Source: an uncultured Clostridia bacterium (lineage in GTDB: Bacteria; Bacillota; Clostridia; TANB77; CAG-508). Taken from it: DNA of 59,517 nt. Location: contig CATLEX010000002.1 in the NCBI GenBank assembly GCA_949927455.1, positions 1 to 59,517 of the forward strand. Reading direction: 5' to 3'. The first letter of the stretch is position 1; every line of letters starts with the position of its first letter. The notes below the pieces were generated by a model. It was given only the letters and a program-made list of their open reading frames with translations. It was not told the origin of the DNA and did not search any database. This document shows positions 18,492 through 26,997 of this stretch, piece by piece. The position numbers and the translations under genes were made by a program.

Positions 18492-18806
18492 ATGGAATTT
18501 GAAAGCATTAAGAGAATTATGGAGACAGAAAAAGAAGCTGAGCGTAAAAGGGAAGTTGCAAAACAAAAGGCAAAAGAAATTTTAGAACACGCTCATAATT
18601 CAAAAGAAAGTAATCGTGTTTATTTTAAAGGGCAATTAGAGAGGAAAACGGAAGATTTGCGAAAGGAAAAAAATGAAGAAAACAAAAAAGAGAAAGTAAA
18701 AATTCAAGCACAAACAAATGAAAAATTGAGAAAATTACAGGCAACCTTACATGGAAATTTATCAGAAGCTGTTGATAAAATATTTAGTGAAGTGATAAAG
18801 ATTTGA
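18492..18806 (+). CDS. V-type ATPase small coiled-coil stalk subunit (G/H-like, NtpF-like)
   Basis: 104-aa Lys/Glu-rich helical protein in the first position of the operon. Confidence 0.5.
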   Translation: MEFESIKRIMETEKEAERKREVAKQKAKEILEHAHNSKESNRVYFKGQLERKTEDLRKEKNEENKKEKVKIQAQTNEKLRKLQATLHGNLSEAVDKIFSEVIKI

Positions 18807-18849
18807 GATAAAATCAAAAAATATTTACAGAAAGGGATGATAAAAGGAA

Positions 18850-20745
18850 ATGTCAATTGCAAAAATGAATAAAGTGACAGTAATAGGAACAAAGGATAAT
18901 GAAGAAGAAATTTTGAAGAAGCTTAGAAAATTTGGATTTTTTCAAGTGGAAGATATGTCACATATTGTAGAAGATGAAGAGTTTAAAGAGTTTTTTCAAA
19001 AGCAAGAGGAAAATAATGAAATTGCTAGCTTAAATCAAAAATTAATTACAATTGAAAAAGCAATTAGCAATATTCGAAAATATGCAAAAGTGAAAAAGTC
19101 AATGTTTGATAGCAAAGAATATTATGAAGAATTGTCTGAAGAGATGTCAGAGAATTCTTATTGTGATGCAAAAAAACTGAATGATTTGATAGAACAGATG
19201 GAAGTTAATATACAAAAAGTAATAGAATTGGAAGAAAAAATCGCGGAATTGGAACCATGGATTAATTTTACAGTTTCAGGTGATTTGAGAAATATTAATT
19301 ATATTAAAATTGTTTTTGGAACCATTAGCACGAAGTATAAAAGAGAACAACTTGAATTGGTATTGAGTAAAGAAAAATTGGAGTATTCTATTAACATTGT
19401 AAATCAAGATAAAAATCATAAATATGTGGCAATTGTAATAAAAGACGAAGAACAAGCTCAACTTAGAAGAGTATTGAAAAATTTTGGATTTGATGAAAAA
19501 GAAATTTGTTTAGAAAATGATTCTATTTTAGATAAAATTCAAAAGGCAAAACAGGATATGGCTGAACTAAAAAGACAAATTCAAGAAAGTAAAGCTCAAA
19601 TAAAACCAGAGCAAATAAAGATATTTGAGAATTTATATGATTATTATTTAAATCAAAAAGATTTGAAAATGATGGAAAAAAGGGTTATTACGACAAAAAA
19701 TACATTTTATTTGGAAGGCTGGATGCCAGAAGGGTGTAAAATTGAGAACAATCAAAAATTTATTATTAAGGTAAGAAAAGAAGAGGCAAATGAAGAAGCA
19801 CCAGTATTTGTAAAAAATAGCAGATTGGTTGAGCCGTTTCAATCCATTACAAATATGTATAGTGTACCAAATAAACATGAATTAGATCCAAATCCAGTGA
19901 TGGCATTTTTCTATATTGTGTTTTTTGGTTTGATGCTAAGTGACGCAGGTTATGGCTTATTGCTAGCCTTAGCATGCTTCTTTATTGTGCATAAGAAGAA
20001 ATATGCAAAAGGAGAAGGAAACTTATTAAAATTATTAGGTGTATGTGGTGTATCAGCAGTTATATGGGGAATTTTCTTTGGAAGTTGCTTTGGAAATCTA
20101 GTCCCAATGAAAGCTGTGATTGATCCATTAAATGATGTTATGCCACTTATGGGACTGGCGTTGCTGTTAGGTATTATTCATATTTATACAGGAATGTTTA
20201 TGAAAGCAGTTGAATTAATCAAGGAAAAGAAAATTTTAGATGCCATTTGTGATATCGGATTTTGGTATTTGTTATTGACAGGTGTATTTTTACTTGTTGT
20301 GCCAATTGTAGCAGGAGATATTGGAGTATGGTCAGAAGTTGGAAAATATTTAGCAATTGCTGGTATGATTGGTGTGTTTTTAACAGGTGGAAGAAAAGAA
20401 AAAGGAATAAAAAAACTGACGAAAGGTGCTAGTAGTTTATATGGAATAACAAGTTATTTATCAGATGTTTTATCTTATTCAAGATTGATGGCATTGTGTT
20501 TATCAACTGGTGTTATTGCCCAAGTAGTTAATTTATTGGGTGGTTTGGTTGGACCAATACCAGCTGTTTTTGTAGGAATTATAGGACATGGGTTTAACTT
20601 GGCCAATAGTGCATTAGGTTCTTATGTTCATACAAGTAGATTACAATATGTAGAATTTTTTGGTAAATTCTATGAAGGTGGAGGAAAGGAATTTACCCCA
20701 TTTAGATATAAAAATAAATATACAAGAATTAAGGAGGAATTTTAA
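18850..20745 (+). CDS. ntpI: V-type ATPase subunit I (a)
   Basis: Soluble coiled-coil N-terminal half and a polytopic C-terminal half, with the conserved LSYSRLMAL arginine motif. Confidence 0.85.
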
Positions 20746-20747
20746 TT

Positions 20748-24968: not shown

Positions 24969-26339
24969 ATGATAAAAGAATATAAAACAATAAAAGAAAC
25001 AGCAGGACCCTTGATGTTGGTTGAAAAAGTAGAAGGTGTAAAATACGATGAAATTGGAGAAATCAAACTTCAAAACGGAGAAACAAGATTATGCAAAGTT
25101 TTGGAAGTAACTGAAGATGCTGCATTGGTTCAATTATTTGAAAGTAGTAGTGGAATTAATTTAAAAGAATCAAAAGTTCGATTTTTAGGAAAAGGTTTGG
25201 AATTTAGCGTTTCTAAAAATATTTTAGGAAGAGTTTTTAATGGAATGGGAAAAGCAATTGATGGTATGCCAAATGTAATTGCGAATAAAAAAGTAGACAT
25301 TAATGGAAAACCAATTAATCCAGCAGCTAGAATTTTTCCATCTGAATTTATCCAAACAGGTGTGTCTTCTATTGATGGATTGAATACTTTAGTTATTGGA
25401 CAGAAACTGCCAATTTTTTCTGGTTCTGGACTTCCTCATGCGGAATTGGCTGTACAAATTGCAAAGCAAGCTAAAGTACTAAAAGAGGATACAAAATTTG
25501 CGGTTGTTTTTGCAGCGATTGGAATTTCATTTGAAGATGCTGAATATTTTACCAAAAGTTTAAGAGAAACAGGAGCGATTAGTCGTTCTGTTATGTTTAT
25601 CAATTTGGCAAATGACCCAGCAGTAGAACGTATTTCAACACCTCGTATGGCACTAACAGCAGCAGAATATTTGGCCTATGAGGAAAATATGCAAGTATTG
25701 GTGATTATGACTGATATGACCAATTATGCAGAAGCACTTCGTGAAGTTTCAGCAGCAAGAAAAGAAATTCCTGGAAGAAGAGCGTATCCTGGTTATTTGT
25801 ATACAGATTTATCAACGATTTATGAGCGTGCTGGTAAGATTAAAGGAAAAGAAGGTTCTGTGACTATGATTCCAATTTTAACAATGCCAGAAGACGACAA
25901 AACACATCCTGTACCAGACTTAACAGGTTATATTACAGAAGGGCAAATTGTTTTAAGTAGGGATTTAAATAAACGTGGAATGATGCCGCCAGTAGATGTT
26001 TTGCTTTCTTTATCGCGTTTGAAAAATGAAGGAATTGGAAAAGGTAAAACAAGAGAGGACCATTCTGGTGTTTTAAATCAGTTGTTTGCATCATATGCAC
26101 GTGGAAAAGATGCCAAAGAATTAATGGCAATTTTGGGAGAAAGTGCACTTTCAGAATTGGATCGAATTTATGCAAAATTTGCAGATGATTTTGAAAAGGA
26201 ATTTATTGCACAAGGTTTCGAGACAAATCGTAGTATTGAGGAAACGTTAAATATCGGTTGGAAATTGCTTTCTACTTTACCAAAACAAGAATTAAAGCGT
26301 ATTAAAGATGTGTATATTGAAAAGTATTTTCAAAACTAG
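24969..26339 (+). CDS. ntpB: V-type ATPase subunit B
   Basis: [35 protein letters not shown]. Stop and start abut ntpA. Confidence 0.95.
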
Positions 26340-26364
26340 AATTTGAAGAAGGGAAGAGATAATT

Positions 26365-26997
26365 ATGGCAGTTTTAAATGTAAATTTAACGCGTATAGAA
26401 AGTATCAATATGAAAAAATCTTTAAAAACAGCGCAAAAAGGGCATAAACTTTTAAAAGATAAACTAGATGAATTGATTAAAAAGATATTAGAACTTGTGA
26501 AAAAAAATCAAGAACTTCGTAAACAAACAGATGAAATGCTAAAAAGTACGTATCAGAATTTTAGACTAGCCAAAGCAGTTATTGGAGAAAGTTATATGGA
26601 GGAAGCACTAATTATTCCAAGAAAATCTGTTTCAGTTGAAATTGGTGAGACAAGTGTAATGAGTGTAAAAATTCCGAAGTTTTATTTTCAAGAAAAAGAA
26701 TGTGAAATAGAAAATAAAGCATTGTATGGTTTTGCGTATACGACATCTGAGTTAGATCGAGCAATTGAGAGTTTTGCAGAAGTTTCAGAAAAATTATTAG
26801 AACTTGCACAAAATGAAAAAGCAATTGAATTAATATCTGCGGAAATTGAGAAAACAAGAAGACGCGTTAATGCCATTGAAAATGTTACGATTCCAAATTA
26901 TAAAGATACAATTAAATATATTGGCTTAAAATTATCAGAAGATGAAAGAGCTTCGACTTCTAGACTTATGAAGATTAAAGAGATGCTTATAAAATAA
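26365..26997 (+). CDS. ntpD: V-type ATPase subunit D
   Basis: Long helical central-stalk protein with GHKLLKDKLDEL and RRRVNAIENVTIP motifs. Confidence 0.9.
   Translation: MAVLNVNLTRIESINMKKSLKTAQKGHKLLKDKLDELIKKILELVKKNQELRKQTDEMLKSTYQNFRLAKAVIGESYMEEALIIPRKSVSVEIGETSVMSVKIPKFYFQEKECEIENKALYGFAYTTSELDRAIESFAEVSEKLLELAQNEKAIELISAEIEKTRRRVNAIENVTIPNYKDTIKYIGLKLSEDERASTSRLMKIKEMLIK

Follow-up and report, generated by a model that had tools for sequence, protein, structure and literature searches.

Several sporulation genes are known to be split by intervening elements whose precise excision rebuilds the open reading frame (ORF). One of these elements, SPβ in spsM, is 134 kb long, and the cotJ genes, with which this report is concerned, form a mother-cell (sigma-E) operon in Bacillus subtilis. 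Skin elements, which interrupt sigK, vary in their cargo and share only the recombinase (bioRxiv 10.1101/2022.02.25.481979). The gin element, which interrupts gerE in Bacillus cereus ATCC 10987, is a non-prophage intervening element that is excised during sporulation by a serine recombinase (PMC5595907), and the premise of an earlier note on the DNA described here, that known sporulation intervening elements are prophage-like, is for that reason outdated. A passing remark in one preprint places a skin-like element in cotJC of Laceyella sacchari (bioRxiv 10.1101/2022.02.25.481979), and a passage of another lists cotJC as a locus of phage or transposon integration, citing Abe et al. 2013 (bioRxiv 10.1101/2021.11.22.469490). 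Here we analyse a 59,517-bp stretch of DNA from an uncultured Clostridia bacterium (contig CATLEX010000002.1; hereafter the window; GC content about 30%), in which the two halves of cotJC are separated by a 10,711-bp insert that contains a 523-aa large serine recombinase (LSR), a 46-aa ORF (orf46) and a nine-gene V-ATPase unit, ntpFIKECGABD. We regard it as probable that this insert is an intervening element of the skin, SPβ and gin kind that has captured the native Na+ V-ATPase of its host, has become fixed, and is excised in the mother cell to restore cotJC, with the pump as a passenger.

The interrupted operon and the two junctions comprise the following features.

15907..16388, minus strand: cotJC 3′ fragment, residues ~66-225 of the rejoined protein plus the stop
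16389..16392, minus strand: attR copy of the 4-bp core GAAT, placed from the junction sequence and the relatives' intact attB
16393..16445, minus strand: P′ arm of attR, on the element side, with GGAGCAAACG at its end
27042..27099, minus strand: P arm of attL, on the element side, bounded by the terminator and the core
27100..27103, minus strand: attL copy of the core GAAT, placed from the junction sequence and the relatives' intact attB
27100..27295, minus strand: cotJC 5′ fragment, residues 1-65; Pfam Mn_catalase profile positions 1-68
27295-27561, minus strand: cotJB; Pfam CotJB
27561-27809, minus strand: cotJA; Pfam CotJA
Predicted attB junction, an excision product made in silico: GGAACAGAAGAATTAGCCCACTTGG / TTGGAACAGAAGAATTAGCCCACTTGGAAATG
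Predicted attP junction, an excision product made in silico: GGAGCAAACGAATACGCACCTAC / GTGGAGCAAACGAATACGCACCTACTAAG

cotJC is interrupted downstream of cotJA and cotJB, all three genes lying on the minus strand, and the break falls after residue 65 (GTEE^LAHLEM, with ^ marking the break here and below). On the 5′ side the interrupted ORF has 71 aa (27080-27295, minus strand) and reads through from cotJC into a stop at 27080, and on the 3′ side a 157-aa ORF (15907-16380, minus strand) corresponds to the rest of the gene and covers Mn_catalase profile positions 70-214. The intact cotJC genes of relatives that were used to define attB (92% and 85% identity at the protein level) read ...GGNACAGAAGAAT^TAGCCCAC... 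at this point (...GAAGAAT^TAGCCCAC...), encoding GTEELAHLEM, and the core GAAT, inside which the crossover dinucleotide lies, is common to both junctions. Joined in silico at GAAT, the two fragments are in frame and give a 678-nt ORF encoding a CotJC of 225 aa that is 93% identical to an intact homologue. An insert of 10,711 bp with a 4-bp core shared by its two ends is the outcome expected from recombination by a serine integrase, and the LSR gene ends 53 bp from the attR core.

The same arrangement and neighbourhood recur in more than 20 independent contigs from several projects and in four metagenome-assembled genomes (MAGs), all found through identical LSR, NtpD and first-gene proteins, which rules out an assembly artefact. 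ORF listing of the insert gave no further credible ORF, so phage, conjugation and mobilisation genes are absent; with only the LSR, orf46 and the V-ATPase genes present, it likewise holds no packaging or replication genes. The junctions and the ORFs of the insert thus uphold the earlier note in placing the V-ATPase operon within the element boundaries as its sole cargo, with no phage or conjugation genes.

The recombinase belongs to a clade for which cotJC is a recurrent target. Its homologues number in the thousands, none of them falling between 56% and 100% identity, and two of the closest, when looked up, proved to sit within a split cotJC, one of them in a 4-kb element made up only of an AAA_21/RloB pair, a 46-aa ORF and the LSR. 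A metagenome scan with an LSR alignment yielded 80 further loci, bringing the related LSR loci to 82. The LSR adjoins a cotJC fragment broken at residues 59-69 in 45 of the 77 informative loci, a proportion that rises to 20 of 23 where the LSR is at least 50% identical. The family members are all broken at the identical position, ...CG^AAT TAGC, and have in common, next to the core, a conserved P′ arm, GGRGCRAACG^AAT, which mimics the cotJC half-site GGAACAGAAG; the element in the window has both the break position and the arm. One element of the family (1,978 bp at 99.8% identity) is integrated in cotJC at locus L109, whereas at L108 and L111 it has a non-cotJC junction exactly at GAAT, followed by P-arm-like GAGTACAT and, downstream, by genes for a histidine-kinase-like protein and a LuxR-type response regulator. 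L108 and L111 probably represent the unintegrated attP form, and the pattern accords with continuing activity of the family.

The related elements vary greatly in their cargo, whose 268 ORFs fall into 228 clusters and which consists mainly of CI-like repressors, S24 peptidases, SSB, RecT/Sak, anti-repressors and replication initiators, together with ToxN, RhuM and others, genes that by their annotation are prophage early regions and defence-like functions. None of the 82 loci carries V-ATPase genes, in agreement with the view of the earlier note that such a cargo is unusual. The nearest phage integrases to the LSR are those of a human faecal phage (47%), Paenibacillus phage phiIBB_P123 (44%) and C. 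tetani phages (39%), and this likeness, along with the cotJC adjacency and the prophage-type cargo, points to a backbone that belongs to a phage-derived LSR clade targeting cotJC.

Other arrangements were seen among the same loci. In a sister branch of LSRs (29 informative loci, L125-L151 and others; 44-48% identical) no cotJC fragment adjoins the recombinase, so that the target is a different one, and the downstream ORFs resembled cell-wall hydrolases or spore-related proteins. Within the cotJC group, the LSR is co-oriented beside the 3′ half in 22 loci, as in the window, and stands in the opposite orientation beside the 5′ half in 23 (L097-L178), which means that attP and the integrase gene have switched their relative orientation between subgroups. 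Some cotJC genes are interrupted twice. One strain of the same species as the window (L003/L193; SRR30000192; L193 1-7883) has a second, different element after CotJC residue ~135, which includes two LSRs in tandem (507 and 519 aa) and a resolvase of 176 aa and resembles the gin element; in other species (L099-L101, L107, L110, L112 and L178) a second cotJC break at about residue 100 lies beside a 27%-identical LSR. Restoration of a doubly interrupted cotJC would need two independent excisions.

The recombination module of the window element has three parts.

16446..18017, minus strand: LSR, 523 aa; Pfam Resolvase PF00239, Recombinase PF07508 and a weak match to Zn_ribbon_recom PF13408
18056..18196, minus strand: orf46, a small conserved protein of 46 aa encoded immediately upstream of the LSR; candidate recombination directionality factor (RDF)
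18226..18253, minus strand: weak candidate sigma-E-like mother-cell promoter upstream of orf46, GAATAGT-N13-AATACAAT

The LSR has the catalytic motif YLRKSRxD, with S17 and R15 invariant, and its best homologue of solved structure is SprA/YokA of SPβ (E = 1e-54, over residues 13-516). Its ORF is intact in all strains, dN is close to 0 among most of them, and judged by these features the module looks functional. Loci whose LSRs are closest to that of the window (at least about 51% identity) have, in the same position, an ORF of 45-46 aa with an I.(F)(Y)DD.I motif; orf46 belongs to this group and may serve as the RDF. Several of the related elements have an invariant GCATACAT (CATACAT) box just upstream of the ribosome-binding site (RBS) of the small ORF, amid variable surrounding sequence, and we take this box to fit the −10 element CATACA-T of mother-cell promoters. 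The candidate promoter in the window matches 13 of the 15 positions of the consensus ZHATAXX-14-CATACAHT. Excision of the C. difficile skin element requires the LSR CD1231 together with the RDF CD1234, a 72-aa protein without sequence homologues whose gene has a sigma-E/SpoIIID promoter and a very short leader (PMC5025042). Family behaviour and such precedent suggest that excision in the organism studied here would also be specific to sporulation.

The cargo occupies most of the insert and runs opposite to the LSR and cotJ genes.

18364..18392, plus strand: operon promoter TTGACT-17-TACAAT (scan score 10/12), conserved in the chromosomal operons of the relatives L017, L018 and L019
18393..18491, plus strand: conserved 5′ leader with inverted 7-mers AAAATAG...CTATTTT about 30 nt apart, kept with L017, L018, L199 and L200
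18492..18806, plus strand: ntpF-position gene (G/H-like peripheral stalk), 104 aa; weak Pfam V-ATPase_G; 77-80% identical to the first gene of relatives
18850..20745, plus strand: ntpI (subunit I/a), 631 aa; Pfam V_ATPase_I
20748..21239, plus strand: ntpK (rotor ring), 163 aa; Pfam ATP-synt_C, twice
21308..21871, plus strand: ntpE, 187 aa; weak Pfam vATP-synt_E; 75-82% identical to relatives
21894..22364, plus strand: ntpC 5′ ORF; AC39 profile positions 1-156, then 15 out-of-frame codons to a stop
22318..22857, plus strand: ntpC 3′ ORF; AC39 profile positions 158-339 in the +1 frame, with an ATG exactly at the break
22850..23176, plus strand: ntpG-position gene (subunit F), 108 aa; Pfam ATP-synt_F
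23187..24968, plus strand: ntpA (catalytic subunit A), 590-593 aa; four Pfam domains; 92% identical to L017 and L199
24969..26339, plus strand: ntpB, 456 aa; Pfam match; 96-97% identical to L017 and L199
26365..26997, plus strand: ntpD, 210 aa; Pfam ATP-synt_D
27007..27041, no strand assigned: A/U-rich hairpin flanked by an A-run and a T-run, resembling a bidirectional terminator, between ntpD and the cotJC 5′ fragment

The gene order, F-I-K-E-C-G-A-B-D, is also that of L017, L019, L199 and L200. Pfam matches to G-like, I, K, E, C/AC39, F, A, B and D subunits confirm the earlier identification of nine co-oriented V-ATPase genes at 18492-26997 on the plus strand. When aligned to E. hirae NtpK (2BL2), the NtpK sequence keeps all five Na+-site residues (L61, T64, Q65, Q110 and E139), and the enzyme is therefore probably a Na+ pump. 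The promoter that the earlier note had called a consensus is present, but at 10/12 falls short of a perfect one; the terminator is also there, but as a weak hairpin (RNA fold −11.9 kcal/mol, z = −2.2) that a stricter scan missed. The leader may be an operator or an attenuator; its alignment with relatives gave no consensus RNA structure, and Rfam had no match in the whole window, leader included. In the 90%-identity cluster of NtpB, members of 593-594 aa occur beside the usual ones of 456-457 aa and may be fusions or mis-called starts in relatives.

The operon had been described as complete, and its nine genes are indeed present, but ntpC is frameshifted into two ORFs. The +1 shift is due to a 1-nt insertion near 22322-22327, GCACGGAG as against GCG-ATGGA in L017 (DNA alignment with L017 and L019), whereas ntpC of relatives is a single intact gene of 321-322 aa. 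The 5′ ORF is called as 156 aa in all same-species contigs, and the gene is split in every strain, including strains that are about 2% divergent over the compared region. We considered an assembly or sequencing error and excluded it, since every independent assembly has the split. The break reads GCA CGG A (22318-22330), in which the 0-frame codon, CGG, is used less often than any other in the window (0.24 per 1000). One speculation is that NtpC is made by +1 frameshifting at GCA CGG A; equally, it could be made as two pieces, the second restarting at ATG 22318.

Polymorphism within the species indicates that the pump appears to be still under selection. The V-ATPase genes have 33 synonymous and 12 non-synonymous polymorphisms, with pairwise dS of 0.005-0.03, dN of at most 0.004 and dN/dS of about 0.1, a pattern of purifying selection that disfavours a dead operon. 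Purifying selection also acts on cotJA, cotJB and both halves of cotJC (dS 0.12-0.23 and dN at most 0.016 in L187).

To place the origin of the operon, we searched 185,579 species genomes and the protein database for its closest counterparts. Those found share its set of nine genes, with identities of 84%, 83%, 79% and 72% for subunit I, 86-92% for A and 90-97% for B, and across many related lineages the identity of subunit I falls in a smooth gradient from 84% to 55%. They lie in ordinary chromosomal contexts that differ from one another (pta-ackA; truB, a two-component system and spoVT; agr/LytTR; GNAT and methyltransferase genes), and no LSR of the cotJC type and no pieces of cotJC were found near them. 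An LSR 2.5 kb downstream of the L200 operon was examined as possible kin of the window LSR and rejected as unrelated (24% identity). Homology between the window and these relatives begins at the promoter and the leader of about 100 nt and stops just after ntpD, so that the element holds a whole native transcription unit; other DNA flanking this unit within the element amounts to only about 150 bp and 100 bp.

The codon usage of the operon lies at a distance of 0.030 from host genes (null 0.046 ± 0.009), whereas that of the LSR deviates (0.119; null 0.078 ± 0.016). Operon and flank GC are 31.3% and 30.6% in the window, 36.3% and 36.2% in L017, and 34.6% and 35.7% in L199; the operons of L019 and L200 exceed their own flanks by 4-6 points. 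The GC content of the window operon is thus near that of its flanks and far from that of other hosts (31% against 35-36% in the closest operons). Codon usage, GC content and the smooth identity gradient together indicate an operon long resident in the lineage rather than a recent import, and by these measures it looks native to the host. The V-ATPase and cotJ operons have different neighbours in every close relative examined (L017, L019, L199, L200/L201, L011 and L014), and gene order seems to be poorly conserved in the clade.

The element looks fixed and vertically inherited, to judge from the contigs compared. It was found in one species, in which it is always present; we saw no presence/absence polymorphism and no second lineage, an LSR-only scan gave no match in the genome collection, from which the representative of the species is apparently missing or in which it lacks this region, and no same-species contig had the operon in an alternative context. 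Between strains the element diverges by 0.2-0.4% and the core flanks (ileS to VanZ) by 0.6-1.2%, the element being of the same order as, and somewhat below, the flanks. Transfer of the element between strains, considered on account of a divergent cotJ flank in L187, was rejected: in strains with both flanks, the divergence of the core flanks equals or exceeds that of the element. Local mosaic hot spots occur in the glycosyltransferase gene (19%), in cotJ of one strain (4.5%) and in the gene for a dockerin-domain protein (3-4.5%).

Two of these hot spots lie close to the element. The GT261 glycosyltransferase gene (15091-15876), beside the cotJC 3′ half, has a 19-21% divergent allele in some strains (L009, L191, L192 and L195), and some of the strains with the variant have two extra genes, PS_pyruv_trans and FrhB-like; the region is a variable polysaccharide locus that abuts the element. 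Upstream of cotJA, a 1250-aa protein (28013-31765) with transglutaminase-core, Ig-like and dockerin domains is highly polymorphic, with 73 non-synonymous and 90 synonymous changes and up to 4.5% divergence.

We infer the occurrence and timing of excision, and the route by which the operon was captured, as follows. A minimal backbone of att arms, orf46 and a cotJC-targeting LSR, probably derived from a prophage, would have inserted into the cotJC coding sequence and, ahead of the divergence of the present strains, would have gained the lineage's own Na+-type V-ATPase unit in full, promoter and terminator included; the element would then have been fixed and inherited vertically. In vegetative cells and in the spore genome it would stay integrated, with the V-ATPase expressed from its native sigma-A-type promoter and engaged in ordinary ion pumping. 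In the sporulating mother cell the LSR would recombine attL with attR at GAAT, probably licensed by orf46 produced from a mother-cell promoter, and excision would rebuild cotJC and release a 10.7-kb circle that the terminal cell retains. Mother-cell excision is plausible by analogy with skin and SPβ, and the pump would be a passenger without a developmental role. The idea that the mother cell would lose the pump genes holds, formally, for its chromosome only, as the circle would, by the same analogy, stay in the cell.

Several observations weigh against this account. The protein database has no intact cotJC product from the same species (best match 93%), and the assemblies, searched through contigs with identical NtpD or NtpF-position proteins, contain neither a reconstituted cotJC nor a circular junction running from ntpD through attP to the LSR. 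orf46 has no detectable homology to known RDFs, SprB included, or to PDB chains or PHROGs. The sigma-E-like match is of chance quality, with 42 equal-or-better matches in the AT-rich window against 45 in shuffles, and it lies farther from the orf46 start codon than the conserved box of relatives does. In strain L191 (ERZ14650986, 7640-7870) orf46 has a cluster of 11 substitutions, with a premature stop and a weakened RBS, and the LSR has six amino-acid changes, so that the ability to excise may be decaying; the frameshift in ntpC, present in all strains, means that the pump may be impaired. Finally, the host kinship of the MAGs with the closest operons rests mainly on V-ATPase similarity.

One alternative is a dead insertion, in which no excision takes place, cotJC is permanently split (and either dispensable or working as fragments) and the LSR is a relic beside a working operon. 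The lack of attB and attP products of the element in assemblies, the disrupted orf46 and altered LSR of L191, the non-significant promoter and the fixation of an element whose absence is never seen all speak for such an end state. We nevertheless consider it unlikely: the LSR ORF is intact in all strains, most of which differ in it by synonymous changes alone; the att core and its arms have been kept and fit the family consensus; both cotJC halves are open and under purifying selection; and excision products are not expected in assemblies of vegetative or spore DNA. The L191 contig, moreover, has 3.5x coverage, and its changes may be due to sequencing error or to an excision module that is decaying in a single lineage.

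If, as we favour, the element is excised in the mother cell, a bolder reading becomes available, which we hold to be quite unlikely. In it a core energy operon, possibly the organism's only V-ATPase, would now be 'germline-only', leaving the mother-cell chromosome at each sporulation; the element would have become unlosable through addiction to its housekeeping cargo; and excision might alter pump expression in the mother cell and the ion balance of late sporulation.

Very unlikely, in our estimate, is the proposal of the earlier note that the operon is a horizontally mobile cassette, moved between Clostridia by the LSR element and acquired together with it. The operon does lie wholly inside an element whose relatives integrate and excise, its position is not conserved among the five related species examined, and the cotJ flank of L187 is about 10 times more divergent than the element. 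However, the element was found in one species only, and none of the related LSR loci carries a V-ATPase; the closest V-ATPase operons are chromosomal, none of them being in an element or accompanied by such an LSR or pieces of cotJC; the operon is host-like in codon usage and GC content and differs in GC content from its closest counterparts, whereas the LSR deviates in codon usage; the divergence of the element is close to that of the core flanks in strains in which both flanks are seen; the anomalous divergence of the flanks takes the form of local mosaics, seen in GT261 and the dockerin gene as well; and transfer, mobilisation and packaging genes are absent from the insert. The earlier note had also raised the case of relatives carrying the operon at the same place with neither a split cotJC nor a recombinase: relatives do have the operon without either, but not at that place. 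Least probable of all is a developmental logic in which an excisable pump alters V-ATPase dosage, topology or expression late in the mother cell, or in which an indispensable operon secures the retention of the element, for which the tidy promoter-to-terminator cassette with almost no other DNA, its fixation in the species and the purifying selection on the pump genes are circumstantial points, but against which stand the convergence of the genes at attP, so that excision makes no new promoter fusion, the persistence of the circle expected from skin and SPβ, so that the genes are not lost from the mother cell, and the unrelated cargo of related elements, so that the family has no common cargo function.

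The account that we prefer, of an excisable cotJC-intervening element with a captured native V-ATPase, suggests that a sporulation intervening element can be little more than a recombination module and a host operon of the housekeeping type. It would extend the range of cargo beyond prophage remnants, resistance and restriction-modification (R-M) genes, and it offers a natural test of whether useful cargo stabilises such elements. In gut Clostridia, cotJC emerges as a target to which one LSR clade returns often and precisely. The attB and attP sites of this clade are defined, and together with its candidate family of 45-aa RDFs they are possible recombination tools. The finding shows neither a new mechanism nor horizontal spread of V-ATPases. 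The V-ATPase cargo is unusual, while the kind of element and cotJC as a target are already known; in the searchable literature we found no V-ATPase or other housekeeping energy operon described as cargo, and no description of the cotJC-specific LSR clade or its att site.

Among known systems, the clostridial mobilisable transposons Tn4451 and Tn4453 (TnpX) are small non-phage elements with one LSR, an excised circle and a cargo gene; they carry a Mob protein and an oriT and insert at many sites, whereas the element described here has no mobilisation gene and a single dedicated target. The Na+-translocating V-ATPase operon of E. hirae, ntpFIKECGABD, has the same gene order and the same Na+-site residues in NtpK; in the window, by contrast, ntpC is split, ntpH and ntpJ are missing, and the operon lies inside a predicted excisable element. 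Earlier reports of cotJC interruptions concern the same target gene, but, in the passages that mention them, do so in passing and without an LSR clade, an att site or a cargo. The gin element differs in scale, with 31 genes, three recombinases and R-M genes as against one LSR and one operon. SPβ in spsM, with SprA and SprB, provides the closest solved homologue of the LSR and the same logic of rebuilding a sporulation gene (PMC4191935, PMC5499854), but is an active phage, and its SprB is dissimilar to orf46. Closest in plan are the skin elements of sigK in B. subtilis (SpoIVCA) and C. difficile (CD1231/CD1234), which likewise have an LSR at one edge, split a mother-cell sporulation gene and rebuild its ORF by precise excision; they are prophage remnants in sigK, whereas the element in cotJC carries one bioenergetic operon of host origin.

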